DNA of 64,000 nucleotides from Patescibacteria group bacterium. Lineage in GTDB: Bacteria; Patescibacteriota; UBA1384; UBA12157; JAENIV01. The position numbers and the translations under genes were made by a program. The notes under the pieces are model-generated. The model was not told the origin of the DNA. It made no database searches and worked only from the letters and a program-made list of their open reading frames with translations. Positions within the stretch are counted from its first letter, which is position 1, and every line of letters starts with the position of its first letter. Shown here in pieces: positions 1 through 60,399 of this stretch. Where the stretch lies: assembly GCA_041666185.1 (NCBI GenBank), contig JBAYHL010000001.1:69073-133072 (forward strand). The letters run 5' to 3'.

Positions 1-906
1 GACAGAACCATTTTTACCGTTTATCATATTTTAAACGACCAGAATGTTCGAAGGCAGGCTATAAGGAATCTGAAAAACGAAGATTTGATTAATTTTTGGA
101 AAAACGAATTCGGCAAAGCCGGCGACTACCAGCATGTCAAAATGATTGGCGGTATAACAGCCAAAGTCGGACGATTTCTTTTCTCCGCTACCGCCAGACG
201 GATATTGGAACAGCCTAAATCAACTATTAGTTTTGACGATATATTGGATAATCAGAAAATTATCATTTGCAATCTGGCGGAAGGCAAGCTCGGCGAAGAC
301 ACCTCTCAGTTATTGGGGGCAACGGTTCTTGCTAAAATCCAACAAGCTGCCGTAAGAAGAGCGAGAGTTGAAAGCGCCAGCCGGAAACCTTTTTACTTAT
401 TCGTTGATGAATTCCAAAACTTTGCCGACAAATCATTTACCAAGTTCTTATCCGGCGGACGAAAGTTCGGATTGAGAATTACCATCGCGGAGCAATCAAC
501 TGCTCAGCAAGATAATAGAAATATTACTAATGTCGTTTTGGCTAATACCGGAACAGTAATTTGCTTTAGAACCGCTAGCCCCGTAGATGAAGAATTGATG
601 CTCTCGCAATTTGCCCCGCAAGTAGTCCAAGGCGATATAGGCAACCTACCCCGCTACCGCTTCTATATGAAAATGGCGGCAGTCGAACCGCAGGAACCAA
701 TGTCCGGCGAAACGATACCGATCACAACGCCAAAGGATCCGGCAAAGGTGAAAAGATTAATTGAAGCGTCGAGAAAAAATTATGCCATCGAATACGTCAA
801 ACCGACGAAAAAAGAAATGCCGGCTGAACAACCAAAACCCTCGACTAAAGCTAGCCCTAAGAAAACGAGCGAATCCGCTCCCGCCGGCCTGAATTCTTAT
901 AAGTAA
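1..906 (+). CDS. Type IV secretion coupling protein (TraD/VirD4-like), C-terminal fragment; 5' end truncated by window edge
   Basis: The frame is open from nt 1 with no upstream stop, so the gene runs off the window. It carries a Walker-B-like YLFVDEFQNF stretch and a basic Lys/Pro-rich C-terminal tail typical of coupling-protein C-termini. The stop is at 904-906. Confidence 0.5.
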   Translation, partial: DRTIFTVYHILNDQNVRRQAIRNLKNEDLINFWKNEFGKAGDYQHVKMIGGITAKVGRFLFSATARRILEQPKSTISFDDILDNQKIIICNLAEGKLGEDTSQLLGATVLAKIQQAAVRRARVESASRKPFYLFVDEFQNFADKSFTKFLSGGRKFGLRITIAEQSTAQQDNRNITNVVLANTGTVICFRTASPVDEELMLSQFAPQVVQGDIGNLPRYRFYMKMAAVEPQEPMSGETIPITTPKDPAKVKRLIEASRKNYAIEYVKPTKKEMPAEQPKPSTKASPKKTSESAPAGLNSYK

Positions 907-936
907 ATTCTGTGTACACCTATGTACACAGAATTT
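905..936. promoter_or_regulatory. Perfect 14-bp inverted repeat (AAATTCTGTGTACA-CCTA-TGTACACAGAATTT) just after the coupling-protein stop; candidate oriT/operator or terminator stem
   Basis: Read directly. The left arm at 905-918 is the exact reverse complement of the right arm at 923-936, with a 4-nt loop. No U-tract follows. Confidence 0.5.
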
Positions 937-1019
937 GACCGAATTTAAGATTAAAAAGATAAAAAATCACTACCCATATATTTTATATATATACTACACG
1001 CACTAATTGCTTTAAACTT

Positions 1020-1808
1020 ATGAAAATATTATCACCACAATTGAATCTATCCAAACGACAAACCGACATTCTTATTCTTCTCTATCGCTTTCGCTTCCTA
1101 AATCGTCAACACATACAAAACTCACTCAACCACAAATACCGCAGCCGCATCTTATCCTGGCTTAACGAACTAACTAACCAAAACTACGTCAAACAATACT
1201 ACGACAAAACAATCGCATCGTCTCCGTCTGTCTATTCGCTTGATTCAAAGGGGAGAAAATATTTAAAGAATTTAAAGGAGGGAAATATTAAGCAGGTGCT
1301 ATTAGATCGGGTATGGCGCGAGGCAAAATACTCTTCAAAGTTCAGAGAACATTGTTTATCTTTAGCAGATATTTATATTTCCTTGCTTGGCATAACAGAT
1401 AAAAACAAATCCACCCTTCATTTTTATACCAAGACAGATTTGCATGGAACGGAACATTTCATTGCTCCGGCTCCTGACGCTCATTTCGCTATTGAGGAAG
1501 TGAATGGACAAGTCGTCCGTTACTTTCTGGATATCTTAGACGATATTCCGCCAGCAGCTCATCGCAGGCGGGTAGCGCAGTATTTTAAGTATTTTGCCTC
1601 CGGCGAATGGCAGGACAACACAGACAAGCCGTTTCCTGAAATTATTCTTATCTGCCCAAACACAAGGACAAAAGGTCATTTATTCTATTACATCCGTAAG
1701 AAACTCTCGGGAGAGCCTGATATTTGTTTTTATCTCACAGCCAAAGAACTCGTCGACAGGAAGGGTTTGAATGGAGAAACATTGCAGAAGGTTGCTGAGG
1801 AAGCGTAA
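1020..1808 (+). CDS. Replication-relaxation family protein (plasmid/ICE-associated)
   Basis: The N-terminal pattern SKRQTDILILLYRFRFLNRQHIQ matches the Replic_Relax family N-terminus. It lies next to the coupling-protein gene. Confidence 0.55.
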   Translation: MKILSPQLNLSKRQTDILILLYRFRFLNRQHIQNSLNHKYRSRILSWLNELTNQNYVKQYYDKTIASSPSVYSLDSKGRKYLKNLKEGNIKQVLLDRVWREAKYSSKFREHCLSLADIYISLLGITDKNKSTLHFYTKTDLHGTEHFIAPAPDAHFAIEEVNGQVVRYFLDILDDIPPAAHRRRVAQYFKYFASGEWQDNTDKPFPEIILICPNTRTKGHLFYYIRKKLSGEPDICFYLTAKELVDRKGLNGETLQKVAEEA

Positions 1809-1810
1809 TA

Positions 1811-2188
1811 TTATTTTTTTCTGGTGAGACTCTCAACGAGCATTAGGGGAATTGGAGTTAAAAAGAATACAACAAGCCCTTCTAAATATTCTTTATCAAC
1901 TATTATTAGTTCATACATAACTGGCAAAATAAATATCAAATATCCAAAGAAAGTTTTTTTGTAAATTACAAAGAAATGTTTTTTAAATAAGGAGTAGAAG
2001 GATAACGATAATAAAGCCAAAGAAAATAATACATATATAGAATAATAAATATCTCTTGAATACAAATCGCTTGGTTTCATTCCGTATGTAAATTCAATTG
2101 AAATGAGTACTAATGCAACAAGAAGATGAAGTGCGATCAAACACAAATATAGAGACCAAATTATTTTATCTTTAAGACTGAATTTCAT
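1811..2188 (-). CDS. Small integral membrane protein (hypothetical)
   Basis: 125-aa ORF with three or four hydrophobic helices. It is AT-rich. Confidence 0.3.
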   Translation of the reverse strand: MKFSLKDKIIWSLYLCLIALHLLVALVLISIEFTYGMKPSDLYSRDIYYSIYVLFSLALLSLSFYSLFKKHFFVIYKKTFFGYLIFILPVMYELIIVDKEYLEGLVVFFLTPIPLMLVESLTRKK

Positions 2189-2252
2189 GAGGTAATTATA
2201 TCACAATCCACAAAAAAGGCCTGAGAATCTCATGGACTCCCAGGCCTAATTC

Positions 2253-2582
2253 TCAATACTCATCCGCTAGCATCACCGTCATTATTCTTCTGCAACTTCC
2301 AGTTAGCGGATCTTCCCAAGCTTGCAATTCCTGATCGTAGTAGTCGATCTTCCAGAATACCTTGTCGCCGTGCCAATCAAGCCTGCCAAAGTCGTGCTCG
2401 CCCCAAGGATCATTGTTTTCATTGAAAACGTTGAACTCTTTGATTGCTTGAAGCAAACCGGGCAAGTCCTTAACACTCTGAACCCCGCATGTTAGAGTAA
2501 CTCCAAACCCGCTTCTTCTAAATTGATCGTTTAAGATAGCAACCTGCGAACGAGTATCTTCCATTTGTCTAGTAACCATACA
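2253..2582 (-). CDS. Hypothetical protein, conserved-looking (NDPWGEHDFG...DWHGDKVFWKIDYYD), in higher-GC cassette
   Basis: The start is set at the ATG preceded by GGAAGAGGAGG-ttgt (MVTRQMED...). The N-terminal extension in the ORF track lacks an RBS. GC is about 48%, versus about 33% in the flanks. Confidence 0.45.
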   Translation of the reverse strand, partial: CMVTRQMEDTRSQVAILNDQFRRSGFGVTLTCGVQSVKDLPGLLQAIKEFNVFNENNDPWGEHDFGRLDWHGDKVFWKIDYYDQELQAWEDPLTGSCRRIMTVMLADEY

Positions 2583-2718
2583 ACCTCCTCTTCCAATTAA
2601 ATTAAGGACGAGCAGGTCGACCTTCCCGCCCATCTGTAAAGAGGCAAAGAACAAATAGGCTGGCTGGGTCAAGGTGGAGCACCCAACGAGATGAACGACC
2701 TTGAGGCAGACAGTCTAT

Positions 2719-2752
2719 TTGTTCTACAAGATGGGAAGACTGGGCGGGAGGG
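2719..2752 (+). repeat. 33-bp direct repeat copy 1 (TTGTTCTACAAGATGGGAAGACTGGGCGGGAGG)
   Basis: It matches 4945-4977 with one mismatch (C/T). It is also part of an imperfect inverted repeat with 2628-2650. Confidence 0.6.
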
Positions 2753-2825
2753 AAGAAGTTTAGTATTGTTAAATGGTTCAATTTGTAATATAAAAAACTC
2801 AGGAACACAAAGGGGGTATAACAAG

Positions 2826-3209
2826 ATGGCAGAACAAGTTTGTTCTGATAAGTGCACATCAAAGGATAAAGTTCTGGAAATCGTAAGGCAGACAGTCAGC
2901 AAAGGCATTGGGCTAGTTAGGCTCCAGCTTTTAACCCTAGAGGTTTACGAGTTTACCATCGAGGAGGAGAGTAAAGACAAAGAGAATAGAAAGGGTGAAG
3001 CCGGCTACAATATCTTTCTGACTCTTGCCGAAAAAATAATTGATCGGGGCGGTTTTCATTCACCTCGAAGCGTCCAAGTTGTTTACGAATTGGTCATTTT
3101 CGTAAAACATGGTGATATCGAAGATAGCAAGGAACAACTCAAGAGTAGTTTGATCGCACAGCGGGAAATAGCCAAGTCGGATGCGATTACTTGGGGAGGG
3201 AGAGCCTAG
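2826..3209 (+). CDS. Hypothetical protein (128 aa) in higher-GC cassette
   Basis: The ATG at 2826 is preceded by AAAGGGGGTATAACAAG. The ORF-track start at 2691 would read through the direct repeat and has no RBS. Confidence 0.45.
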   Translation: MAEQVCSDKCTSKDKVLEIVRQTVSKGIGLVRLQLLTLEVYEFTIEEESKDKENRKGEAGYNIFLTLAEKIIDRGGFHSPRSVQVVYELVIFVKHGDIEDSKEQLKSSLIAQREIAKSDAITWGGRA

Positions 3210-3254
3210 AGCCTTTCCCTAAACTCATATTCAGATAAAAGGAGGCAGAATCAA

Positions 3255-3989
3255 TTGAAAAAAAGAGTTGCGGTAGTTACAGGGGCAGGACAAGGCATCG
3301 GAAAAGCGATTGCTTTTGCTCTTGCCAAGGAAGAAGGCATGATTGTCGTAGTCGTTGATTATAACGAGACGATTGCAAAAGAGGCTGCTCTGGAAATACG
3401 AGCATCTGGAGGCAACGCTACTGATCTGCGATGTGATGTCGGCAACCCTATCGAGGTGAGCTCTATTGCAGATATATGGCAGAACCAAGGGATTGATATT
3501 CTGGTTAACTGTGCCGGCATTACAAGAGACAAGCTGTCTGTGCGAATGACAGATAGCGAGTGGAGTGATGTCATTAGAACCAACCTCGATGGTACCTTCT
3601 ACTGTTCCAGGACGGTTGCCAATGTGATGCTTAAGTCCCGGAGGGGCGGGTGCATTGTAAATATTGCCAGTGTGATGGGTATCACGGGTAATGTAGGCCA
3701 GGCGAACTATGCCTCATCCAAAGGCGGAGTGATCGCTTTGACCAAGACAATGGCAAAGGAATATGCCTCACGTAATATTCGAGTCAATGCAGTTGCACCT
3801 GGCTTCATCGCAACAGCGATGACTGAGTCCTTGCCTGAGGTAAAGAGGATTGAAATCGAGAAGGCAATTCCAATGGGCCGGCACGGTAAACCGGAAGAAG
3901 TAGCTGAGGTGGTCAAGTTCCTCTGCTCCGATGCAGCCAGTTACATAACCGGCGAAGTAATCAAGATTGATGGCGGCCTGGCAATCTAG
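3255..3989 (+). CDS. fabG: Short-chain dehydrogenase/reductase, 3-oxoacyl-ACP reductase (FabG)-like
   Basis: It has the TGAGQGIGKA Rossmann motif, NCAG, and an S...YASSK catalytic triad context. It uses a TTG start after an AAAGGAGG RBS, and a rho-independent terminator follows. Confidence 0.85.
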   Translation: MKKRVAVVTGAGQGIGKAIAFALAKEEGMIVVVVDYNETIAKEAALEIRASGGNATDLRCDVGNPIEVSSIADIWQNQGIDILVNCAGITRDKLSVRMTDSEWSDVIRTNLDGTFYCSRTVANVMLKSRRGGCIVNIASVMGITGNVGQANYASSKGGVIALTKTMAKEYASRNIRVNAVAPGFIATAMTESLPEVKRIEIEKAIPMGRHGKPEEVAEVVKFLCSDAASYITGEVIKIDGGLAI

Positions 3990-4016
3990 CAGGCGCGATA
4001 ATAACAAAATCATCTT

Positions 4017-4052
4017 CCCCGCAGGCGCTATTGCTTGCGGGGCTATTTTTTG
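4017..4052 (+). terminator. Rho-independent terminator after fabG-like gene
   Basis: The stem CCCCGCAGGCGC...GCTTGCGGGG is followed by CTATTTTTTGTG. Confidence 0.6.
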
Positions 4053-4181
4053 TGTTCCCACACATTATATTCAATGGGATGACTGGCAGGGGAAGATTTA
4101 AAAACTCGTGGTTAATGCATGTTGACTAATTCAGTGCCTCTGTTAAAATAGCACTGGACAAAAAAAGGGGGTGAATGACTA

Positions 4182-4868
4182 ATGTCCAATATTTCCTATC
4201 ATGTGGGCCACATGGCAAGAAGTGTTCGATTGATGTTTGGCTGCAATCCTGTATTGCCGGAAGGTATGGAGATAGAAACAGGCAGTTTTCCTGAGCCTGC
4301 TGTCTACTTAGATCCATCGGGAGATGGCAGTTGTGTGCCAGGCATGAAGATTAAACTGAAGTGGTCAATCTCTCTGGGAGAATCTACCCAGGTGGATCTT
4401 CTTGACCTGAAAGATGAATGGCTAGTCGTACCGGTTGATAGCGTCAAGCTAACTGGTCACTGTGGTTTCACTGTAAAATCAAATGATCTGCCTAGAGGGG
4501 AAACAAGAAAGCTAACGGAAAAGAGGGGCTGGACGAATCGTGCAGATATCTTCCTGAGCGCTATCAGGGTTCTTTCTGAGCACCATACAGCGGTTCCCGG
4601 AGACAGAACGCCGATCACGGAAGATTCTGATCTGGGGAATGACCTCGGGATGGATCAAATTGACTTTATGGCCATAGTCGTTGAACTAGAAGATGTCTTC
4701 GAGATTGAAATTCCCGATGATGCTTTCCCTGTATCACAGGCAGAAGAACTTGTGAAGCTTGAGGAACGTGATGACGGATCGACAAAGCTCGTCGGTCCTG
4801 ATCTGATGGGTCCTGGATTAACAGTCGGACTGATTGTCGATTATATAGAACGGAAGTTGTTCTTGTAA
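4182..4868 (+). CDS. Two-domain protein with a C-terminal acyl-carrier-protein-like domain in which the conserved Ser is replaced by Gln (DLGMDQIDF...)
   Basis: The C-terminal sequence DLGMDQIDFMAIVVELEDVFEIEIPDD aligns to the ACP consensus [27 protein letters not shown], with Gln at the Ser position. An AAGGGGGTGA RBS is present. A terminator lies at 4906-4938. Confidence 0.55.
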   Translation: MSNISYHVGHMARSVRLMFGCNPVLPEGMEIETGSFPEPAVYLDPSGDGSCVPGMKIKLKWSISLGESTQVDLLDLKDEWLVVPVDSVKLTGHCGFTVKSNDLPRGETRKLTEKRGWTNRADIFLSAIRVLSEHHTAVPGDRTPITEDSDLGNDLGMDQIDFMAIVVELEDVFEIEIPDDAFPVSQAEELVKLEERDDGSTKLVGPDLMGPGLTVGLIVDYIERKLFL

Positions 4869-4905
4869 TCGCCGCACACCATCGTTGCAGTTTCCTATAT
4901 TCTCG

Positions 4906-4938
4906 GCCCGTGGGCATTCGCTCGCGGGTTTTCTTTTT
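4906..4938 (+). terminator. Rho-independent terminator (G-U-containing stem plus U-tract)
   Basis: The stem GCCCGTGGGCATTCGCTCGCGGGT is followed by TTTCTTTTTG. Confidence 0.5.
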
Positions 4939-4944
4939 GCAATT

Positions 4945-4977
4945 TTGTTCTATAAGATGGGAAGACTGGGCGGGAGG
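4945..4977 (+). repeat. 33-bp direct repeat copy 2 (TTGTTCTATAAGATGGGAAGACTGGGCGGGAGG)
   Basis: It matches 2719-2752 at 32 of 33 positions. Confidence 0.6.
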
Positions 4978-5041
4978 ACATCACTTGAAAGAACCAAACT
5001 GCCGATTGTTTTTATTGCTAAACTTTTGTATCCTATAAGTA

Positions 5042-7216
5042 ATGAATGAATTCGGGCAATCAATTTTTATCGAGCCAAAGCCACAAGATAGCATGGGATC
5101 TGCAGAAAGCTATCAAGCTTTGGATGCGGAAAATGGCCAGGAGGGAGAACGAGCTTTCACCGCAGAGGAATTAAGAGAAATTGATTCTAAGAGAAAAATT
5201 TTAACTTCACTGGCATATTTTATTGGTAAAGATTTCCAAATGCCGGTGGAACTTAATAAGCCAGGAGGTGGATGGCACTGGGACTTTAAGGAAAATGTTG
5301 TCAGAGTTGATCCAAAAGATCTATTAGATAAGCCTATGGATTATCTCCGTTTTGTTATTTCTCACGAAGGCGGTCATCGCAGAATTTCTCGTACAGAATT
5401 CATACCTTTAGAGACATGGCGACAGCCTGGATTTTCTTTTATGATGAATGCAATCGAGGATCCAAGAGACAATAATTTTGTAGCAGAAAATTACCCCAAA
5501 TTTAGAGAGCAAATGAATTTGGCTTATGAAATGGATCTAGATTGGGAAAATAAGTCGAAAGAAAAAGCCGAGTCTAAACTTGGCTACCAGCCAAGATTTA
5601 TGCAAGCCGGGTTTGAATATATTAAACAATGGTTTCACGAACAAAAAGGCACTGAGGCAGTAATTGATGAATCCTTACCAGATGAAGTTAAAGATGTCGT
5701 CGCTAAAACTTTAGAATCGGCTCGTGCTTCATGGTGGACATATCCGTCTCGTCAGGAAGCCGATGAAGATGAAGAACTTATAAAAAGATATGCAGAATCT
5801 TCCTACAAAATTAGCTTAGAAAATATATGGCCGGAATTCCAAAAATTAATTGAAAAAGACATTGAAGACCAAAAAACTCAGGAATTATTAGATGACATGC
5901 AAAAAGAAAAAGGTGAGGATGGAAGTACTGATTTGCCACAAGAATTGAAAGAACAACTTTCTCCCGAAGAACAACAAGAGCTAAAGGATGCAATAGATAA
6001 GGCAATTGAAGAAACAAAGCAACAAGGAAAGGGAGAAGCCCAAGAGGGAAAACCAAGTGAAGGAGAAGGAGAACCAGGAGAAGAGCCGAGCCAAGGAGGT
6101 AAACCAATCGATCTAGGCTCTTTGTCTCCCGAACTAAAACAAAAAATAAAAGATTTTATTGACTCTCTTCCCAAAGACAAGAAACAGGAATTAAAAGAAA
6201 GAGCTCAAAAATCTATAGCTGAATTCGAAAAAGACCTCGATAAAGAAATCGAAGGAAAAATGTCAGATAACCCCGACAATAGAGAAGAAGGGAAAACAGC
6301 AAAAGCAGAGCCGTCCAAGCCTACGGAGCAGCCACAAGAACCAGAAACTCCAACACAAACGACTTCTCCAGAATTGGAAAAATATCGTGAGATGATTGCC
6401 GAGACTCTTAAAAAAGATGAGAATACTTACGAGGAAAATAGACGAGAGGTACTGTCTATTATCGATAGTCTTGAAAGCGATCTCCGAGAAATATTTGTCA
6501 CTCGACGTATGCATGCTTGGAAGGGCGGATATAAATCTGGAAAACGGATCGATATTAAAAGGAGAATTCAAGAAAAAGCCAAAGAGGTTTCAGCGATGGA
6601 AAGCCGAGCTTGGGAAAAGCGCGAGATGCCAAGCGAAAAGGATTATGCTATTAGTCTCTTGATTGATTTGTCGGGTTCGATGCGTGGAGAAAAGATAAAA
6701 GAGACTTTTAAAGCCACGATTGTTCTTGCAGAAGTCTTAAATAGGCTTTCAATTCAAACGGAAATCTTAGGATTTAATGACCGAGTTTATGAGTACCAAA
6801 AATTTGGAGAGAATATTTCTCGAGAAATTAGAGAGAATATGGGAGGAATGCTCCAGGAGGTTTATGATACTAGCGGTACCGGGAAAGCTCAGTGGAATGA
6901 TGACGGTTGGGCTCTAACACAAGCTTCAGAAAGATTGGCTAAACAAAAAGCTGTTGAGAAGTTCTTGATCGTTATGTCGGATGGAGCACCGGAAGAATCA
7001 TCTATGCATCCTCGATCTGAATACGATTTAAGCAAAGTGACAGAGAAGGTATTGAAAGAAACAGACCAAAAACTTATAGGTTTAGGAATTGGTTATGGTA
7101 CAAAGCATGTTGAACATTATTATCCGAACAGTTTGGCTGATGTTAGCTTAGAAGAAATGGCTGGTAAACTGGCCGATCTGATCCGTGAGGCTATTGCTAA
7201 CTACGATAAATTCTAA
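5042..7216 (+). CDS. vWA-domain protein with N-terminal HExxH metallopeptidase-like domain and a central acidic/Lys-rich low-complexity linker; MoxR-associated
   Basis: An HEGGH (HExxH) motif sits near residue 110. A MIDAS motif DLSGSM and a downstream SDG motif lie in the C-terminal vWA fold. A long E/K/Q-rich linker separates them. A MoxR ATPase gene is two genes downstream. Confidence 0.7.
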   Translation: MNEFGQSIFIEPKPQDSMGSAESYQALDAENGQEGERAFTAEELREIDSKRKILTSLAYFIGKDFQMPVELNKPGGGWHWDFKENVVRVDPKDLLDKPMDYLRFVISHEGGHRRISRTEFIPLETWRQPGFSFMMNAIEDPRDNNFVAENYPKFREQMNLAYEMDLDWENKSKEKAESKLGYQPRFMQAGFEYIKQWFHEQKGTEAVIDESLPDEVKDVVAKTLESARASWWTYPSRQEADEDEELIKRYAESSYKISLENIWPEFQKLIEKDIEDQKTQELLDDMQKEKGEDGSTDLPQELKEQLSPEEQQELKDAIDKAIEETKQQGKGEAQEGKPSEGEGEPGEEPSQGGKPIDLGSLSPELKQKIKDFIDSLPKDKKQELKERAQKSIAEFEKDLDKEIEGKMSDNPDNREEGKTAKAEPSKPTEQPQEPETPTQTTSPELEKYREMIAETLKKDENTYEENRREVLSIIDSLESDLREIFVTRRMHAWKGGYKSGKRIDIKRRIQEKAKEVSAMESRAWEKREMPSEKDYAISLLIDLSGSMRGEKIKETFKATIVLAEVLNRLSIQTEILGFNDRVYEYQKFGENISREIRENMGGMLQEVYDTSGTGKAQWNDDGWALTQASERLAKQKAVEKFLIVMSDGAPEESSMHPRSEYDLSKVTEKVLKETDQKLIGLGIGYGTKHVEHYYPNSLADVSLEEMAGKLADLIREAIANYDKF

Positions 7217-7230
7217 TACAATTTAAACAT

Positions 7231-7641
7231 ATGGAAAGCAAAAAATTTCATCAATTTATCAAAGATTCTCAAGGCCAAAAGGAGCTTTCTTTAGCGTTGG
7301 CAAAATCAGACGAAGAGTTTATTAAGTTTCATGCTTTTCTAACAGAAGGTGGATATATCGGATCGGATGATATTTACACTGTCTTATCGCACCTTGAAAG
7401 ACATAAAAAAGTCTATTTAGTTATCAATAATACAAGCGCAAAGGTCCTTTACGATTTTGCCACGCAATACCCCACCGGACAAGTAAATCTTTTAAATCCC
7501 AAAACCATGGAAAACAAAAGTTTCACTCCTGACTATAAAAATCATTCGCTAATTTTACTTACAACATCAGAATACTTAAAACACATTGTCAAGCATGATT
7601 TAGATTTTATAAATATAGTTGGAATGGTATATAAAAGTTAA
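7231..7641 (+). CDS. Hypothetical protein (136 aa) between vWA and MoxR genes
   Basis: ORF on the same strand with tight spacing, consistent with operon membership. Confidence 0.45.
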   Translation: MESKKFHQFIKDSQGQKELSLALAKSDEEFIKFHAFLTEGGYIGSDDIYTVLSHLERHKKVYLVINNTSAKVLYDFATQYPTGQVNLLNPKTMENKSFTPDYKNHSLILLTTSEYLKHIVKHDLDFINIVGMVYKS

Positions 7642-7650
7642 AGGTAATTT

Positions 7651-9783
7651 ATGCCTAATTCACCAGAATTTAGTTTTGCCAATATAGCTGAAGGAGGATC
7701 GGGAGGAAAAGAGCCGGTTCAACTCCAAGAAGACCCAAAAACAGAGCTGCCCAAAGCTCCGATTTTGGAAGACGAAGATTCTATATCGTATCTTGGAGTT
7801 AAGCTAGAGAAATCCCATGTCTCCAGTGCTTTCGTGCCGGAAAGAGAAAAATACACCGACTATATCAATGATAAATTTTCACTTGAATTGCAACAAAAAA
7901 TTGCGGTCTCGATGCTTCAGGGTGATCCGATACTTATTGAGGGCGGAACAAGTATTGGAAAAACTACCACTGTTAGAAAGATGTGCGCCGAGTTGGGATA
8001 TGAAGTGCATTACGCAAACCTAAACGGCGCGACTGATGTTGAAGATTTGATGGGCAGATATATCCCCAATCCTCACAAGACCAATCCCGAGGATCCTGAA
8101 TATGTTTTTGCTGACGGCAAGGTTACTTCGGGGCTTCGCAAAGAAGAAGGGAAAAAGAAAATCATCATTTTAGATGAGTTCAATGCTTCAGCTCCAAATA
8201 TCTTGATTCGTCTTCATGAAGTAATAGATGCACTAGAGCGGGGCGGCGAAGTTGTTTTATCCGAGGATGCTTCAGAAGTTGTGCATGTTAGTCATGAAGA
8301 TACAAAGATAATTGCTCTTACAAATCCTCCAGGAAAGGGTTATTTTGGCAGAGAACCTCTTGATCCTGCGCAGTTACGAAGATGGGTTTACCAAAAGGAA
8401 GTTACTGAACTACCGGATAGCACATTTGCTTTTTCAACAGAGGCTTTGTTTGGCATTGGCAGTAGAACTGAAGAAATTCCTGATAGTCTTTATTTAGATT
8501 CACCCGATCAAGCTATTTCACGCGAACAACTAGCAGAAATCTCTGGAATGAAAGAGATACTAGACAAGTATCAGGAATTTCACAAAGCAGCAAAGGAACT
8601 CATTAAACAGAGAATGGTTGCTGCAGACCAGCCCCAGCCGTTTACTTTTGACGACAGAATGGAACCACACAGAATTAGTCGGTTTGTTGCACGTTTTTAT
8701 AATGGCGATATCAACGAAACTTTTCAAAGAGGCCTACGATATTATTATGTTAATAAGCTAGAAAATTCAGAGGACAGACAAAAACTTGAGGAATTGATTA
8801 GTCATGTCTCGTGTACCCCTGCCGTAGACTCTAGAAGACGGGCTATCGGCGAACCTGAAACAAAGACTCCGGAAAGCGCACTAAAAACAAGAGCTGAAAA
8901 AGAGATCGAAGATATAATGTCCAGTTCTGAAATACCAGATTCAGTTAAGGCGGCACTTGCCGGAAAAGAGACGCCACTATCCAGCGAGATATTAGAACAA
9001 ATGAAGGAAGCTAAAGAGATTTTTGGGAATGATTTTCTTGGTCCAGAGGAAGTCAAAGCCGCTTTCTTGGATCAAGTGGAGATCTCTGAAGTTCCATCGA
9101 TTCCATTCTCGAAAGAAGAGCTTGAAAAAGCTCGCGAGCTGGAGCAAATGCTTATCTTACGAGTTGATAAAGCCAAGGATGGTTCAGACCTCACTATGGA
9201 AAAAATTCATGGCCTTCTTAATGGCAAAATCAAAGATGAGGCAAAAGTTTTATACAGCGTCGATTGGTATAAAGATGAAGAATTCTATAAAAAAGATAAG
9301 CCGGAAGTTACTTGGGCGCTTGTCTCCAAAGAAGCTGTGCCGGATTCCTCTGATAAAAATTATCTTGAACAAACTGAAACATTAGCCAACTATTTAAGAA
9401 ACGAAGTGTTTAAAACATTGATAATGCCAGCCAAATACGGTGAAGCCCTCAGGGAATTCGAAAAGGAAAAAGCTTCAATTGCCAGGATTGTTGAAAGCGA
9501 CAAAGAATCAGAATGGAAAGAGGCAGCTCGCAAGCTTGAGGCATTGAAGCTTAATCAACTTACTCGGCAATCCCCAACCGAAGCGCTATATGATTTAATA
9601 GTTCGCTATCAGCAGACAGGCGAGAGATTGATGGAAAATATGTATACTTGGACTAAGCGCCGTGATTCCGGTGGCGGCCTGGTCTGTGTTGGCCGCTTCG
9701 AGTCCGTTGGTGTCCGCGTCGGCGGGGGCAGGCCTGGCGATTGGAGTGGCATTCTTGGCGTTTCTTTCTCCCGCAGTCTATGA
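7651..9783 (+). CDS. MoxR/AAA_5-type AAA+ ATPase fused to a C-terminal DGR variable C-type-lectin/FGE-like domain (DGR target 1)
   Basis: It has Walker A GGTSIGKT, Walker B IIILDEFNASAP and a MoxR-like sensor region. The last about 40 codons form VR1 and differ from the template repeat at adenines. Confidence 0.75.
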   Translation: MPNSPEFSFANIAEGGSGGKEPVQLQEDPKTELPKAPILEDEDSISYLGVKLEKSHVSSAFVPEREKYTDYINDKFSLELQQKIAVSMLQGDPILIEGGTSIGKTTTVRKMCAELGYEVHYANLNGATDVEDLMGRYIPNPHKTNPEDPEYVFADGKVTSGLRKEEGKKKIIILDEFNASAPNILIRLHEVIDALERGGEVVLSEDASEVVHVSHEDTKIIALTNPPGKGYFGREPLDPAQLRRWVYQKEVTELPDSTFAFSTEALFGIGSRTEEIPDSLYLDSPDQAISREQLAEISGMKEILDKYQEFHKAAKELIKQRMVAADQPQPFTFDDRMEPHRISRFVARFYNGDINETFQRGLRYYYVNKLENSEDRQKLEELISHVSCTPAVDSRRRAIGEPETKTPESALKTRAEKEIEDIMSSSEIPDSVKAALAGKETPLSSEILEQMKEAKEIFGNDFLGPEEVKAAFLDQVEISEVPSIPFSKEELEKARELEQMLILRVDKAKDGSDLTMEKIHGLLNGKIKDEAKVLYSVDWYKDEEFYKKDKPEVTWALVSKEAVPDSSDKNYLEQTETLANYLRNEVFKTLIMPAKYGEALREFEKEKASIARIVESDKESEWKEAARKLEALKLNQLTRQSPTEALYDLIVRYQQTGERLMENMYTWTKRRDSGGGLVCVGRFESVGVRVGGGRPGDWSGILGVSFSRSL
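9655..9780 (+). repeat. DGR variable repeat VR1
   Basis: About 125 nt align to the template repeat (11428-11552). Roughly 22 substitutions all fall at template adenines, plus a single non-A difference. The 3' end CTTGGCGTTTCTTTCTCCCGCAGTC is IMH-like. Confidence 0.8.
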
Positions 9784-9811
9784 GCCTTTGAACTTTGGTA
9801 TTTGAGACTTT

Positions 9812-9834
9812 GATTCCGCCGAAGGCGGTCGACA
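9812..9834 (+). other. GC hairpin (CCGCCGAAGGCGG) downstream of VR1, typical DGR target-site hairpin / terminator
   Basis: The same hairpin recurs after VR2. Confidence 0.6.
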
Positions 9835-9866
9835 TAAAAAATTTTATACAATTAAAGGCAAAAAAT

Positions 9867-10856
9867 ATGAGTGAATTTGGTCCATCACCACAATCAGAAG
9901 AAGAAAAAGAAGAACAAGGTGTTTCTCTAGCAAAGGAAATAGCTGATCTTAGAAGTGGTGCCCAAACAGATGAAGATTATGAAAATATTTTGCGTAAAAC
10001 CAAAGTGCTAAAAGAACTGTTTGGGATTTCTTCATGGGATACTGCTTCAGATGAAACTAAATTATCAGGCGAAATAGCTGAACAAATTGAAAGAGCTAAA
10101 GAAATATTAGGAAGTGATGTTTTTGGGCCAGATGCAGTAAAAGAAGCCTTTGGCACTGCAATTGAATTAGGCAGTATTCCCTCGATTCCATTTTCAGTAA
10201 ATGAACTTGAAAGAGCAAAAGAACTCGGCCAGATGCTCATTTTGAGAGCCGGCAAATTGTCTGATGGAAGCAAACTAAATATGAAAAAGATCGGTGAAAT
10301 TTTGGGTGGTAAAGTTAAAGATGAGGGTAAGGTTTTTTATAATCCCGATTGGTACAAAGATGAAAAATTTTTTACAGACGATGCTGTTGAAACCGGTTGG
10401 GCATTGGTCTCTAAAGGGTTAGTATCTGATTCTGTCAATAAAAACTATTTTGAACAAACCGGACTCTTAATCGATCAACTTAATCAGTCTTTTAATGGTG
10501 CTGAAAACTTACCAGAAGAGTATGTTGAGGCAGTGAAAGAATATGCTTTTGCTATGGACGAGATCGCGGAATTAATTGATACTGATTGGCAAAAAGCGGC
10601 TGAGAAATTAGAAGGCCTGGAGATTAATCAATTATTACGTCAATCTCCATCCGAAGCGCTATATGACTTAATTCTCTATTTTCAAAACACAGGGAAAAGA
10701 TTGCTTGGCGATAAATATACTTGGACTAAGCGCCGTAATTCCGATGGCCGCCTGGTCTATGTTGGCTACTTCGAGTCCGCTGGTGTCAGCGTCGGCAGGT
10801 ACAGGCCTGGCTATTCGCGTGGCGATCTTGGCGTTTCTTTCTCCCGCAGTCGTTGA
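9867..10856 (+). CDS. DGR target protein 2, C-type-lectin/FGE-like variable protein (paralog of the C-terminal half of the MoxR fusion)
   Basis: It is about 55% identical at the protein level to residues 430-710 of the upstream gene. The C-terminus is VR2. The alternative start at 9795 lies inside the VR1 hairpin, so I rejected it. Confidence 0.7.
   Translation: MSEFGPSPQSEEEKEEQGVSLAKEIADLRSGAQTDEDYENILRKTKVLKELFGISSWDTASDETKLSGEIAEQIERAKEILGSDVFGPDAVKEAFGTAIELGSIPSIPFSVNELERAKELGQMLILRAGKLSDGSKLNMKKIGEILGGKVKDEGKVFYNPDWYKDEKFFTDDAVETGWALVSKGLVSDSVNKNYFEQTGLLIDQLNQSFNGAENLPEEYVEAVKEYAFAMDEIAELIDTDWQKAAEKLEGLEINQLLRQSPSEALYDLILYFQNTGKRLLGDKYTWTKRRNSDGRLVYVGYFESAGVSVGRYRPGYSRGDLGVSFSRSR
10728..10851 (+). 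repeat. DGR variable repeat VR2
   Basis: It aligns to the template repeat and every internal difference falls at a template adenine (about 16 sites). Confidence 0.8.
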
Positions 10857-11050: not shown

Positions 11051-11335
11051 ATGTATTATGTTTATGTTTTAAAAAGCCAGAAAGACAAGCGCCTTCACAT
11101 CGGTTACACAAATGACTTACGCCGTTGTATGGAAGCGCATCGTGATGGCAAAATTGCTGCTACAAAAGATAGAATGCCGCTTGAGCTAGTTTATTACGAA
11201 GCGTACAAGTCGGTCACTGACGCGAGAAAAAGAGAGAAGGATTTGAAATTATTCGGCAGTTCTTATTCTCGTCTCAAAAGAAAAATTAATAATAGCATCA
11301 AAGACAAGATTAAAACTAGTGAAGATACTAAATAA
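11051..11335 (+). CDS. GIY-YIG nuclease-domain small protein
   Basis: YVYVLKS...GYTNDLRRCMEAHR matches the GIY-YIG signature. Confidence 0.65.
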   Translation: MYYVYVLKSQKDKRLHIGYTNDLRRCMEAHRDGKIAATKDRMPLELVYYEAYKSVTDARKREKDLKLFGSSYSRLKRKINNSIKDKIKTSEDTK

Positions 11336-11427: not shown

Positions 11428-11552
11428 AAACGCCGTAATTCCGATGGCAACCTGGTCTATGTTGGCAACTTCAAGTCCGATGGTGTCAACGTCAACAGGA
11501 ACAGGCCTGACAATTCGAATGACAATCTTGGCGTTTCTTTCTCCCGAAGTCT
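11428..11552 (+). repeat. DGR template repeat (TR)
   Basis: It is rich in AAC/AAT codons at positions that vary in VR1 and VR2. It is non-coding as placed and carries a 3' IMH-like segment. Confidence 0.8.
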
Positions 11553-11912
11553 AAAAACAAAAAGGGCTGTCTTGCTAAGAGGACGACCCTTTTTGCTCTA
11601 TATGTTCTAATTTTTTGTAGTTTTTATCCAGCCACCAAGCATTTTACCGATCTCAATTAAAGGCTCGGAAAGTCGTAAAAATTTTTTGTTATCAATTGCC
11701 TTGATATCAAGCAATGCCTTAATTAAAGTTTGCAATATTTTAAGTTTTGTATCGACGGATTGTAAAACGGCGAGACGATTTTGCCCGTATTTTGCGTTTG
11801 CTTCATACAGCATTTCTAAAATATTTAAAGCTGTATTTTCGCATTTGGCCCCAATTGTATACCTATCCTTCTTAGGAATAGTCTCAATAGTGCTGTATAA
11901 ACACAAGTAAAA

Positions 11913-12599
<687 letters not shown>

Positions 12600-12612
12600 T
12601 TTAACAAGTCAG

Positions 12613-13053
12613 TTGTTCTCAAATATATATCTCAATCCGCTCGATCAGTTTATTAAAAGAGACCTTAAAGAAAAATATTACATTCGCTATGCTGATGATT
12701 TTGTGATTTTGAGTTGTGATCGGGATCATTTAGAGAATCTTATCCCAATATTAAGGTCATTTCTTACTGATGATCTTAAGCTAGAATTGCACCCAGATAA
12801 GATTATCTTGCAAAAATGGAGCCAAGGAATCGACTTTCTAGGATATGTAATTTTTCCATACCATACTGTGCTACGAACAAAAACGAAACAAAGAATGATG
12901 AGAAAAATAAGGAATAATTGCTATCTTTTGAAAGAAGGCCGTATGTCTAGAGAGGCTTTTAATCAAGCTCTGCAATCATATATAGGAATTTTGAAACATT
13001 GCCGCTCTCACGTGTTACGCGATAAGATTGAAACCATCGTTAAAGAAGTCTGA
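12613..13053 (+). CDS. DGR reverse transcriptase, C-terminal part (PLGNLTSQ DGR signature, YADD catalytic motif, thumb); frame +1 relative to N-terminal part
   Basis: The frame is open from 12565 (AFGRGTPLGNLTSQLFSNIYL...) and includes YADDF. Confidence 0.7.
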   Translation: MFSNIYLNPLDQFIKRDLKEKYYIRYADDFVILSCDRDHLENLIPILRSFLTDDLKLELHPDKIILQKWSQGIDFLGYVIFPYHTVLRTKTKQRMMRKIRNNCYLLKEGRMSREAFNQALQSYIGILKHCRSHVLRDKIETIVKEV

Positions 13054-13587: not shown

Positions 13588-14733
13588 TTGTTGAATAAAT
13601 TCTACAATAATGTTAAAAAATTAACAAAGGATATAATGCGGAAAGATTCTGTTAATAACCTGAAAAATAAAAGAGAGCATATAAGCAAACGACTCCGTTT
13701 TAAAATTTTTGAACGAGATCAATTTAAGTGTGTTTATTGTGGTAGTGGCATCGAAATGGGTTTAACTCTTCACATTGACCATATAATTCCTGTTTCTAAA
13801 GGCGGAACTAATGAGGAAGCCAATTTAGTCACAGCCTGCGACCAATGTAATCTTGGTAAAGGAGCAAAAATAATTGGAGCGGATAAAATTCCTAACATTA
13901 AAGAAGTAAATGAAGCGCTAACAAAAGAAATTAAACTGAATACAGAGCGAAGGGAACAACTTAAACAATATTATCATTATAAAGAAAAACTCCAGAATAT
14001 AAAGAATCCAGAACAAGATGCGTTCAATGATATTTTAAAGAGAAGGCTTGGCTACTCCTTAACTTCTGTCGAGTTTAAACAATTTAAAAGGCTGCATGAT
14101 AAATGTGGCTTGGATCTTGTCATTGAAGGAATTGGAATTGTTGCCGAGAAAGACAGAGACTGGGCATCTTCCGAGCAGAAGCACAGATACCTCTGTGGAG
14201 TTTTATATAATTTATTTCGCGAGAAAACTGATCCGCTCTACAATCCTGAAAGAGAGGTTAAATATTATTATCTTAATCACAAAAATAACAGCGGCAGCGT
14301 ATATTATGTGGATTGGAAAATTAAGCCATATATCCAGAAACTAGAGCTTCCTAAGATAAAAGAGTTAATAGACGACACATTTTCAGAAGGGAGAGATGGC
14401 TATTTTAGGTACTTTATTGAACAGTGTAAGGATGCTCTCTTGTTAATTGAAGAAGAGAAGAAAGCTAAGGAATTTTATCTAACTCATCCAAATAAAATCC
14501 AGGATGATATTTATAACAGTGATAAAATTAGGTATTTTATTGAGATTTTAGGATTAGATCGTGTGTTGGAATTAATGGGACAGGCCCTAAAGGATTATGA
14601 AACCCCGGAAGTCAGAAATCATATTCAAGTCAACCATGATGGCAAGCCCTTTAATTACTTAATGGAAACGTGCGAGATATTTGAATGGGATGAGATAGAA
14701 AAGAAAAATGGCAGAGTCGGAATCCCATTCTAA
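13588..14733 (+). CDS. HNH endonuclease-domain protein with large C-terminal extension
   Basis: CVYCG...HIDHIIPVSKGG...ACDQCN matches the HNH motif. Confidence 0.6.
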   Translation: MLNKFYNNVKKLTKDIMRKDSVNNLKNKREHISKRLRFKIFERDQFKCVYCGSGIEMGLTLHIDHIIPVSKGGTNEEANLVTACDQCNLGKGAKIIGADKIPNIKEVNEALTKEIKLNTERREQLKQYYHYKEKLQNIKNPEQDAFNDILKRRLGYSLTSVEFKQFKRLHDKCGLDLVIEGIGIVAEKDRDWASSEQKHRYLCGVLYNLFREKTDPLYNPEREVKYYYLNHKNNSGSVYYVDWKIKPYIQKLELPKIKELIDDTFSEGRDGYFRYFIEQCKDALLLIEEEKKAKEFYLTHPNKIQDDIYNSDKIRYFIEILGLDRVLELMGQALKDYETPEVRNHIQVNHDGKPFNYLMETCEIFEWDEIEKKNGRVGIPF

Positions 14734-15461
14734 ATAAATTGCTTTATTATATTCATTATTATTCTAATGCCCTTCAACCCTAATATCATAATCCTGAAGT
14801 TTAAAATAAACCACCATCCTAGCACAGGCAAAACAAAACCAGTGAAAAATGCCCGTACTTTCAGCTTACTGCATTGCTTAGAGTTGACAACAAGGCTTCG
14901 ATGCATTCGCTCGTATTTGTCTTTATAACCTTCAGCGAGCTTTTTGTTTGCGCCAAGGTAAGCCATTACTTCCTTAGCTGCTTTCTCGTCGAAAGTCCTT
15001 CTCATCATTTCCCGACTGTTTCTCTGCGAAAGGATATTTAAGCTCCCTTCCCAAAGTATTTTTCGATCAATGATCGCCACCTTTTCATGAATCGACCCTT
15101 GGAGATAGAAAATGCAGGCTCCCATCTCCTCATAATCTTTTAAAGCGCATTGGATTTCTGCTCTCATAAAATACTCGTGCTCTTCGATCGGTCTGGTGAA
15201 TATAAAGACTGCGATATTTCTTCGTCTAAGCTTATTGAGCGTATCGCTGAAAAAATCTGAACGAAATTTTGAGATGAAAGGGCTGTAAATAATGAGTTCT
15301 TTTTCGGCATTCAGCATATCTTTGATGAATGATCGGTAAAATGTCTTTTCATTATATAAAGAGATGGCGGTTTTTGATTTTTCTTTTCCTCTTTGCTGTT
15401 CGGCCTGGATCATAGCGTCTCTATGCTTTAAGTAATCTTTGAACGATGGGTTTTTGTACAT
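14730..15461 (-). CDS. Phospholipase D-like (HxK(x)4D) nuclease-family protein with C-terminal hydrophobic segment
   Basis: HEKVAIID matches HxKxxxxD. Confidence 0.55.
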   Translation of the reverse strand: MYKNPSFKDYLKHRDAMIQAEQQRGKEKSKTAISLYNEKTFYRSFIKDMLNAEKELIIYSPFISKFRSDFFSDTLNKLRRRNIAVFIFTRPIEEHEYFMRAEIQCALKDYEEMGACIFYLQGSIHEKVAIIDRKILWEGSLNILSQRNSREMMRRTFDEKAAKEVMAYLGANKKLAEGYKDKYERMHRSLVVNSKQCSKLKVRAFFTGFVLPVLGWWFILNFRIMILGLKGIRIIMNIIKQFI

Positions 15462-58729: not shown

Positions 58730-58806
58730 GGGCCCGTAGCGTAGCGGTTTAACGCGCCTCCCTGTCACGGAGGAGATCGCCGGTTCGAATCCGGTCGGGC
58801 CCGCCA
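58730..58806 (+). tRNA. tRNA-Asp (anticodon GTC), CCA encoded
   Basis: The acceptor is GGGCCCG/CGGGCCC, the anticodon loop CTGTCAC and the T-arm GCCGGTTCGAATCCGGT. Confidence 0.85.
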
Positions 58807-60399
58807 TTCCAAACGAAGAAGCCGTAAAGCTTCTTTTTTGGTATCATTTAAACCAGTTGTTACCCCTGCTAACACTGGTTCCAACCTTTTATATTTGGCT
58901 TCTACCGCTGGATAACGATTAATGATGGGAATCAGCCATTCATTAGGTTTAATATCCAATAATCCGTCTTTTAGCACAAAGTTCCAACCTAAAGCTGAGA
59001 AGATCTCTTTCTTTTGCTGAATATCCCCTATTTCAAAGGCTTTCAAGGCATATGTTACAAAATCAAAGAATCTCTCCCCTAACTCCATCCATTTCTCTGC
59101 TCTGTGGTCAGTATCCTTAAGTTCTTCCTGTAATTTAGCTTTTTTTGCTATCAATTCCTGTTTATTTTGAATATATTCGTCGTCATCTATTAATGATCGC
59201 AATTTCATTTTAAGTAGGTTATCGAGTTCAGTCTGAGTATTATTGATAGCTTTTTGTTGTGATTGATAGATCTTATTTCGATCACCAATTTCTTGATTGC
59301 TCCGACGATTCACAACCGATAGTGCCCAATCTCGAAAAACTGGCATTATTTTTATCCTACTAATCTCTCTTTCAATTTGTGTTTCGAGATTATCCTTGGT
59401 TATATACCCTTGCGAACACCATTTTTTCTTATGAGTGCAATGATAATAAGTAAAACTCTTCAATCGATTAGTACTTTTTATAAGTTTTGTTTTCATCTCG
59501 GCAGTGATTAGACAACCACACTCACCGCAACGGATCTGACCAGTAAAAGGAAAATAGTGCGTTTTGGGTCTTGGTTTGCCTTTTCTACCAAGTAATATTT
59601 GCACTTGATCAAATTCATCAAGAGTTACCATCGCTTCATGCTTCCCGGGATATTCTACCCCTTTATGTAAGATTACGCCTGAATAAAAGGGGTTGGTAAA
59701 CATTGCATAGATTGAACTCCGTGCCAAAGGACCACCGCCCCTTTTTCGCCTTTTTAAAGTAGTAAAACCCCACTGGTTGTTAGCTATATCAAGAATTATT
59801 GGTGGGGTGTAGTTGCCTGTCAGCATTAAATCCCACATTTTTCTAACTAAATCAAATCTTTTCGGATCTTTTATGATTGTATGTTCTGCAGTTTCAATAT
59901 TTACAAAATTTAAATAACCATTGGGTGCTTCTGAAGGCAACCAACCCATACTTAGCTTCTTCTCTAGTCCTCTTTTAACATCAGTTCCGAGTTTAGCTGA
60001 ATAATATTGGCCTTGCGAGAGTACCATTTGCAACATCAAAATACCAGACGCATCATTAATAAAACTATATGAACCGAATTTTAGATCTTTTATAACGCCA
60101 GTTCTTAAGGCATAAGTAATATTGGCAGCGTCTATCTCGTTTCTTGAAAGCCTATCGGGATGCCAAGAGATTATTCCATGAGCTTCGCCTTTTTCGATTC
60201 TTTCCATCATTTTTTGAAATAAAGGCCGATTATATGGCTTGAAAGCACTATGACTTTCTTCGAAATAGTCAACTATCGTCAACTCACCAAAGTATTCTTT
60301 GATTTTATCTTTTTGAGCGGGGATAGAAAGGGCTTGTCGCTCTTCACCTTCGCTGGATTTTCTCAAATAAGCAAAATATTTAATCTTTTCCATATTCAT
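58765..60399 (-). CDS. Large serine recombinase (resolvase catalytic domain, recombinase domain and zinc ribbon); 3' end overlaps the tRNA-Asp 3' half
   Basis: YLRKSSEGE...SIPAQ catalytic-Ser context and a CGECGC zinc ribbon. The last about 14 codons translate the tRNA complement. Confidence 0.8.
   Translation of the reverse strand: MNMEKIKYFAYLRKSSEGEERQALSIPAQKDKIKEYFGELTIVDYFEESHSAFKPYNRPLFQKMMERIEKGEAHGIISWHPDRLSRNEIDAANITYALRTGVIKDLKFGSYSFINDASGILMLQMVLSQGQYYSAKLGTDVKRGLEKKLSMGWLPSEAPNGYLNFVNIETAEHTIIKDPKRFDLVRKMWDLMLTGNYTPPIILDIANNQWGFTTLKRRKRGGGPLARSSIYAMFTNPFYSGVILHKGVEYPGKHEAMVTLDEFDQVQILLGRKGKPRPKTHYFPFTGQIRCGECGCLITAEMKTKLIKSTNRLKSFTYYHCTHKKKWCSQGYITKDNLETQIEREISRIKIMPVFRDWALSVVNRRSNQEIGDRNKIYQSQQKAINNTQTELDNLLKMKLRSLIDDDEYIQNKQELIAKKAKLQEELKDTDHRAEKWMELGERFFDFVTYALKAFEIGDIQQKKEIFSALGWNFVLKDGLLDIKPNEWLIPIINRYPAVEAKYKRLEPVLAGVTTGLNDTKKEALRLLRLEWRARPDSNRRSPP

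Follow-up and report, generated by a model that had tools for sequence, protein, structure and literature searches.

The 64-kb window examined here, one continuous stretch of DNA from a Patescibacteria group bacterium, carries near its start a gene (4182..4868, + strand) for a 228-aa fusion protein that NCBI lists as MFA6492601.1, "phosphopantetheine-binding protein". The protein can be divided into an N-terminal domain (residues 1–95; 4182..4466, +), a basic linker with a pI of 10.3 (residues 96–117; 4467..4532, +), and a C-terminal domain with the fold of an acyl carrier protein (ACP) and a pI of 4.06 (residues 118–228; 4533..4865, +). At the position of the phosphopantetheine-attachment Ser, the ACP domain has a CAA codon (4656..4658, +), which places Gln159 as the first residue of helix II. 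Immediately upstream lies the gene for a 244-aa FabG-type 3-oxoacyl-ACP reductase (3255..3989, +). We conclude with high confidence that the C-terminus of the fusion protein has an ACP fold and is not a carrier.

Comparison with profile libraries revealed the family of the C-terminal domain. Residues 144–182 fell on positions 17–54 of the Pfam profile PP-binding (PF00550) with a score of 29.2 bits (E 1.1e-6), which exceeds the family's gathering threshold of 20.8. Fifteen ACP models of NCBIfam matched the protein as well, with E-values down to 1.7e-9, every one of them far under its family cut-off; the AcpP equivalogs scored 31–38 bits against cut-offs of 66–106 (best 37.8 against 66; TIGR00517 30.8 against 70.45), and the cut-off of 70 for TIGR04069 (ocin_ACP_rel, an ACP-related family of peptide maturation) was not reached at 17.4 bits. 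A phmmer search of the PDB returned 107 sequences at E ≤ 1, and the best 60 of the 107 were all ACPs. The best NCBIfam and PDB matches were fatty-acid-synthase-type and mitochondrial ACPs rather than carriers from polyketide synthases (PKS) or nonribosomal peptide synthetases (NRPS), and with tblastn residues 113–222 aligned with a whole acpP gene.

The predicted structure was in agreement with these assignments. AlphaFold2, supplied with an input alignment made of ACPs, placed helix I at residues 120–134, helix II at 159–173, a short helix III, and helix IV at 215–227, with pLDDT values of about 80–93, while a prediction from the single sequence was useless (mean pLDDT 30). The best 50 Foldseek matches of the model in the PDB were all ACPs, with a TM-score of 0.82 normalised to the T. 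maritima ACP (6lvu_A). Helix IV, TVGLIVDYIERKL, bears the AcpP signature 'TVG..VDYI'. Of the eight acidic residues by which helices II and III are recognised, a MAFFT alignment with E. coli AcpP shows six to be retained (the equivalents of D35, D38, E47, E48, D56, and E57), while the equivalent of E41 is Ala164 and that of E60 is also lost. The domain departs from a standard ACP in an insertion of about 27–29 aa between helices III and IV (residues 184–212; 4731..4817, +), which is modelled with low confidence, residues 185–210 being poorly defined; this insertion is partly common to the Ser-less standalone protein P0013, with which it shares a PDLxGxGL motif. The initial annotation had proposed an ACP-like C-terminal domain from the sequence and had named a HMMER search with PP-binding profiles and a prediction of the four-helix fold as checks; the Pfam score, the PDB matches, and the predicted helices with their ACP neighbours in Foldseek all bear the proposal out. 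A coincidental likeness, under which the C-terminus would come from some other, unrelated family of helical proteins, is ruled out by the same scores and fold matches together with the alignment over an entire acpP gene, and we give it practically no weight.

The replacement of the attachment Ser was seen in two kinds of alignment. In the phmmer alignments, Gln159 of 'LGMDQIDF' falls on the Ser of 'LG.DSLD', and when MAFFT aligned the domain with the ACPs of fab operons and with E. coli AcpP, D35-S36-L37-D38 of the latter corresponded to D158-Q159-I160-D161, as the initial annotation had read from the sequence. An independent second assembly (ENA ERZ27249449, locus L006), located by a look-up of the FabG sequence, carries a gene that is 100% identical, and its 13 differing sites relative to window positions 1–9767 all lie inside a hypervariable repeat far from the gene. 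This identity in two assemblies, together with a CAA codon that is at least two substitutions away from any Ser codon, shows that Gln159 is no sequencing or assembly error. An exact look-up of the 218-aa JGI version of the protein matched no contig. Residues 150–184 contain no Ser or Thr. Since the canonical Ser is lost, no 4'-phosphopantetheine is expected there and hence no acyl carriage; we firmly predict that phosphopantetheinylation at this site is impossible and that the domain is no acyl carrier. With the defining Ser absent and every AcpP equivalog cut-off failed, the protein is best classified outside the functional carrier family. Its NCBI name, which derives from the Pfam match, is misleading because the attachment Ser is missing.

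The protein could in principle still be a carrier that is modified at a non-canonical residue, for example Ser149 in the 'DSDL' loop, and that partners FabG in a small biosynthetic pathway. The NCBI label, the adjoining FabG gene, and the DSDL string 10 residues before Gln159 speak for this idea. Ser149, however, aligns with Ser27 in loop I of E. coli AcpP and not with the N-terminus of helix II, and the loop string 'DS.L' also occurs in normal ACPs that carry the true DSL. The stretch from residue 150 to 184 offers no other Ser or Thr, no phosphopantetheinyl transferase, ketosynthase, or acyltransferase was seen adjoining the gene, and the 64-kb window encodes no further ACP. A non-canonical carrier is therefore highly unlikely.

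The N-terminal domain, predicted to be beta-rich in a low-confidence model, has no credible match in Pfam, PHROG, or the PDB, consistent with the initial annotation, which had assigned this region to no known family. The same annotation had given the non-ACP part as 150 aa; it amounts to about 117 aa, made up of the 95-aa domain and a 22-aa linker. In the alignment-based AlphaFold2 model the domain reached pLDDT values of only 29–47, and the first 112 residues were essentially unmodelled. A HMMER search of 1.84 billion representatives disclosed a sole other copy, the complete standalone 82-aa protein P0002, with 60% identity to residues 6–95 over the matched stretch. The two genes encode the same residue in 48 of 80 aligned codons, and a pN of 0.24 against a saturated pS of 0.93 shows that the domain is under purifying selection. 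Conserved C21, C51, H93, and C94 are among the invariant residues; that they bind a metal is a guess.

The gene for P0002 (390–638 on contig L001) has its own promoter-like and Shine-Dalgarno (SD) sequences and lies downstream of an unannotated short open reading frame (ORF) that ends at the contig edge. Its GC content of 0.55–0.61 stands against a contig background of 0.32–0.39, and it is bracketed by a 34-nt direct repeat (L001 237–270 and 724–779), the second copy of which is split by a GC-rich hairpin. From the high GC content and the flanking split repeat, the gene looks like a foreign, small mobile cassette.

Comparison of the fusion protein with P0002 on one side and standalone ACPs on the other suggests how the two parts were joined. 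P0002 ends in '...LTGHCGP-stop', directly after the GHCG motif that it shares with the N-domain, and the fusion protein reads on at this point. Codon 118 is ACG and aligns with the initiator Met of standalone ACPs (P0013 and the fab-operon ACPs), so that 'TNRADI' of the fusion protein faces the 'MNRIDI' that starts P0013. Four nucleotides before codon 118 is AAGAGGGG (4521..4528, +), an octamer with a single + strand occurrence in the window and possibly a relic ribosome-binding site. We infer that the region of residues 96–117 is the scar of a gene fusion. Two formerly separate genes would have been joined when the small upstream gene lost its stop and the ACP gene its start codon (ATG to ACG at codon 118), and the linker is probably the former intergenic spacer, now translated. 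A separately translated ACP from an internal start was considered and rejected, as the reading frame contains no ATG, GTG, or TTG between codon 56 and Met157 and codon 118 itself is ACG.

The upstream gene was evaluated for its kinship and for residues expected to contact an ACP. Its product scored 294.1 bits with TIGR01830, just under the cut-off of 297.75, passed the cut-off of the PRK12826.1-2 subfamily (241.1 against 222), and matched adh_short_C2 at E 2.5e-60; these Pfam and NCBIfam scores confirm the FabG-like neighbour reported in the initial annotation. NCBI names it beta-ketoacyl-ACP reductase, Patescibacteria group bacterium. The catalytic residues N110, S139, Y152, and K156 are kept. 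R129 and R173 are also present and are equivalent to R129 and R172 of E. coli FabG, its ACP-docking arginines.

The nearest relatives of this FabG are only about 55% identical, and the two that were examined (L007 and L009) sit in plsX-fabH-fabD-fabG-acpP-fabF clusters with a 78–81-aa PP-binding gene directly downstream. No fabH, fabD, or fabF was found around the fusion gene. The FabG and fusion genes have GC contents of 0.49 and 0.47, both with a strong SD sequence; the VWA protein and AAA_5 ATPase genes further downstream have 0.39 and 0.43, without an obvious SD. The pair fits a fabG-acpP fragment that may have been acquired together from another donor, and horizontal transfer of acpP into Patescibacteria has been reported (PMC12455944).

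The signals around the fusion gene point to separate expression. A promoter-like site, TTGACT-16-TAAAAT with a TG extension (4122..4149, +), agrees with the consensus at 10 of 12 positions and was the top-scoring match within the 5.1 kb scanned; it is a consensus match only, and promoter-like sites as a class were not enriched there (9 found against 9.3 expected from shuffles). An SD-like sequence, AGGGGGTGA (4166..4174, +), was read 7 nt before the ATG. Terminator-like hairpins of 11 pairs followed by a T run lie 3' of fabG (4017..4042, +) and 3' of the fusion gene (4905..4930, +). Having its own promoter-like site and SD and a hairpin on both sides, the gene is predicted to be a transcription unit apart from fabG.

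No signal peptide or recognised secretion signal was detected in the protein; a lipoprotein signal ('MFGC'/'MFAC') was rejected by inspection, as it is without a hydrophobic h-region. PADLOC gave no defence-system match for the fusion protein, FabG, or the VWA protein, and PHROGs gave for the fusion protein only a similarity to 'acyl carrier protein'.

Searches for relatives returned no full-length match besides an identical copy, either in a word-indexed set of 5.8 billion clusters or with HMMER in the 1.84 billion representatives, and a two-sequence profile run against the 5.8 billion clusters recovered only the identical copy and P0002. Scans of viral, genome, and metagenome contigs likewise gave no full-length or N-domain relative. 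The single genome match, L005, is an ordinary DSL-bearing acpP matched via 'IVDYIERK' and was set aside. In a pool of about 15 billion proteins it is a singleton.

Loss of the attachment Ser is less exceptional than the fusion. The initial annotation had called this Ser universally conserved, which does not hold among the nearest PP-binding-like domains: in 37 non-self proteins with 63 ACP-like domains, 15 domains lack Ser (Glu in 6, Thr in 4, Asp in 3, Trp in 1, and Gln in 1), or 11 if Thr is not counted. The standalone P0013, with Glu for Ser, is 37% identical to the fusion protein over 106 residues (pairwise E 8e-14) and shares its 'MNR.DI' (with Met at the first position only in P0013) and the 'PDL.G.GL' motif in the extra segment. 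This likeness is a hint of a Ser-less lineage that is older and has been maintained, and not of recent decay. The second domain of P0038 has Gln in place of Ser, and its gene follows one for an AMP-binding enzyme; no common theme was found in the neighbourhoods of P0013 and P0038, the former lying beside unrelated genes. Ser-less ACP-like domains are thus common in metagenomes, though unstudied, and our literature search for Ser-less bacterial ACPs found nothing specific. What is new is the fusion architecture and the N-domain, as Ser-less ACP folds are already known in eukaryotic parasites.

Three other proteins (P0004, P0006, and P0008; 300–424 aa) combine an apparent lipoprotein-type N-terminus with three tandem ACP-like repeats, and in each of them at least one repeat has Asp, Glu, or Trp for the attachment Ser, last repeats included. 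They could be exported and may form a class of ACP-repeat proteins that has not yet been studied.

We tentatively favour, at somewhat less than even confidence, an account in which a chimeric protein arose from two genes and its Ser-less ACP fold, taken from a captured fabG-acpP pair, serves as a docking module independent of the prosthetic group. The ACP part would derive from a fab-operon acpP, the gene next after fabG, and would have been captured together with fabG. It could then dock the N-domain onto an ACP-recognising protein without needing a prosthetic group or, equivalently, occupy the ACP-binding site of its partner, the adjoining FabG being the obvious candidate. The largely kept acidic surface of helices II and III and both docking arginines of FabG were counted for docking, as were two precedents, the Plasmodium mitochondrial ACP and the unmodified or Ser-to-Ala ACPs, both treated below. 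Nevertheless, our confidence that any docking function is retained is far lower than that in an ACP fold without carrier function, and several observations weigh against the docking module. The strong terminator between the two genes means that co-expression with fabG is not implied; conservation of the fusion and of Gln159 is not demonstrable for a singleton; and the AlphaFold2 model leans to the ACP fold because of the ACP rows in its alignment. The ACP part is also far more diverged than FabG (37.8 bits against cut-offs of at least 66, compared with 294 against 298), which fits relaxed constraint too. Such relaxation would be expected of a decaying relic, the main rival reading. On this view, the acpP copy of a fabG-acpP fragment taken up into the conjugative element has shed the attachment Ser, the initiation codon, and its compact form and is now read through from the small gene upstream as part of one ORF, leaving the ACP part functionless and selection acting on the N-domain or on nothing. 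This is possible but doubtful: in its favour are the singleton status, an ACP part far below every ACP family cut-off beside a FabG near its own, the low-confidence insertion in the model, and the report that Patescibacteria lack fatty acid synthesis (PMC12455944), whereas the 111 ACP codons are still open, the hydrophobic core and most acidic surface residues are intact at a pLDDT of about 90, and the MNRIDI start, Ser loss, and PDLxGxGL motif shared with P0013 would suit a lineage that has been maintained.

The initial annotation had suggested a decoy or regulatory partner for ACP-binding enzymes, which we regard as a plausible hypothesis. The retention of six of eight acidic residues and of the FabG tetrad and docking arginines was counted for it, as was the growth inhibition by ACP that cannot be modified: unmodified and Ser-to-Ala ACPs bind partner enzymes, suppress the growth of E. 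coli, and inhibit glycerol-3-phosphate acyltransferase (PMC4736557, citing Keating et al. 1995). Counted against a decoy were the singleton status and the transcription apart from fabG; its targets are doubtful because the host group is reported to be without fatty acid synthesis (PMC12455944), and a decaying fabG-acpP remnant accounts for the same facts. The same toxicity of obligate apo-ACP would make the protein conceivable as a weapon or takeover factor, an apo-ACP mimic that would shut down ACP-dependent enzymes, either in the cell receiving the element by conjugation or in the bacterium on which an epibiotic Patescibacteria cell lives, with the N-domain providing targeting or an added activity. 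A strong promoter-like site of its own on a mobile element that bears a type IV secretion system (T4SS), near a relaxase gene, would suit this role, as would a standalone N-domain gene that is itself a foreign cassette. We nevertheless consider a weapon unlikely: the protein lacks a signal peptide and any recognised secretion signal, PADLOC and PHROGs add nothing beyond the ACP similarity, E41, a key partner-contact residue, is Ala, and there is no evidence for the presence of an ACP-dependent target. Still less probable is the broadest form of these ideas, in which the conjugative element of an epibiotic cell would encode a natural, obligate apo-ACP mimic linked to a mobile domain for targeting or effector action. 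By docking on its own FabG or on enzymes of the recipient or host bacterium, it would redirect lipid metabolism or bring it to a halt, as a bacterial counterpart of the phosphopantetheine-independent ACPs of apicomplexans.

Comparison with characterised ACPs delimits what the proposed docking module could be. The fusion protein shares with AcpP (PF00550, TIGR00517) the four-helix fold, 'DLG.D.(L/I)D' at the start of helix II, the acidic helices II and III, the 'EIPD' turn, and the 'TVG..VDYI' of helix IV, and its gene directly follows fabG in the same orientation, as in the fab operons of L007 and L009. It differs in the Gln for Ser, the ~27-aa insertion before helix IV, and the 117-aa N-terminal extension; AcpP is a standalone protein of about 75–100 aa encoded in a fab cluster before fabF, whereas the protein described here is a 228-aa fusion with its own promoter-like site and terminator.

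In Plasmodium falciparum, type II fatty acid synthesis (FASII) had been lost when the mitochondrial ACP (mACP; PF3D7_1208300) exchanged its Ser for Phe; the protein is an essential subunit that binds Isd11-Nfs1 without the prosthetic group, and Toxoplasma mACP has Cys or Gly at this position (PMC8547962). Like these proteins, the fusion protein has lost the attachment Ser and retained the ACP fold, and the mACP compartment lacks type II fatty acid synthesis much as fatty acid synthesis is reported to be missing from the host group (PMC12455944). The two show no specific sequence kinship, however; the fusion protein is bacterial, borne on a mobile element, and fused, with no LYR-type partner known, and its replacement is a polar Gln and not a hydrophobic Phe. 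Obligate apo-ACPs of E. coli or Synechococcus, unmodified or with Ser to Ala, are likewise folded ACPs without a prosthetic group and provide the mechanistic model for a decoy, but these are laboratory constructs or overexpression states, whereas ours is a natural gene with additional domains. The Ser-less metagenomic ACP-like domains of P0013, P0004, P0006, P0008, and P0038 resemble it in that Asp, Glu, Gln, or Trp takes the place of the Ser; none of them has the N-terminal domain, their gene contexts differ, and none is characterised. The protein would thus work at most like an apo-ACP or an mACP-type binding module, and it is either such a module or a relic.

If the ACP domain still binds partners, it would be a bacterial case, on a mobile element, of an ACP reused purely for protein binding, and it would give a handle on lipid-related genes in Patescibacteria, a group for which fatty acid synthesis is reported absent. 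To our knowledge, the only well-studied natural case of a binding-only ACP is the mitochondrial ACP of the malaria parasite. If the domain is a relic, the locus is a tidy case of two genes fused when one lost its stop codon and the other its start, and nothing further. In addition, the label "phosphopantetheine-binding" is misleading also for the similar Ser-less domains, about a quarter of the nearest ACP-like matches.

The wider setting was followed over the window and a further 6.7 kb upstream, taken from L006. The fusion gene lies within what its gene content identifies as a conjugative element (window 1 to ~11500 plus L006 1–6746). The first ~11 kb of the window have a GC content of 0.39–0.44, compared with 0.33–0.37 in the remainder, and encode a TraG/TraD-type coupling protein (864 aa), a Replic_Relax protein, and a DUF3768 protein. 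The upstream part, L006 1–6746, contributes T4SS genes: VirB4-like, TraC-like, PrgI, two pilin-like, and TrbC, together with an M23 peptidase. The remaining window is ordinary chromosome with RNase Y, TypA/BipA, a P-type ATPase, and ten tRNAs (35.9–58.8 kb).

Downstream of the fusion gene are genes for a CobT-like VWA protein of 724 aa (5042..7216), a small ORF (7231..7641), an AAA_5 ATPase of the CobS/MoxR-like type (7651..9783), and an ORF that carries a copy of the ATPase 3' end (9795..10856), the C-terminal ~300 nt of the ATPase gene being duplicated there at 76% identity. A diversity-generating retroelement (DGR) of textbook layout that looks active follows, with a template repeat of 124 nt (11428–11551), variable repeat 1 at the 3' end of the AAA_5 gene (9655–9778), variable repeat 2 at the 3' end of ORF 9795..10856 (10728–10851), bAvd (11607..11984, −), and a reverse transcriptase (RT) with a split frame (11913..13053, +). 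Differences in the DGR fall at template adenines in 23 of 24, 17 of 17, and 19 of 19 instances. Both copies of the ATPase end finish in variable repeats, and the ATPase-VWA system therefore appears to be the DGR target. The 13 sites that distinguish the two assemblies are all in the first variable repeat, which suggests that diversification is still under way.

The RT frame is divided into 11913..12599 and 12613..13053, the latter with the YADD motif, by a perfect (GA)19.5 tract (12521–12559) flanked by a small hairpin. Repeat slippage alone would not rejoin the frames because a TAA follows the tract in the downstream frame; an insertion, an artefact, and inactivation of the RT are all conceivable as its cause. 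Genes for a GIY-YIG nuclease (11051..11335), an HNH endonuclease (381 aa; 13588..14733), and a PLD-family protein (14730..15461) cluster around the DGR at the GC transition. Towards the other end of the window, a large serine recombinase with Resolvase and Zn_ribbon_recom domains (58765..60399, −) overlaps the end of tRNA-Asp (58730–58806, +), and this overlap may mark the edge of another integrated element.

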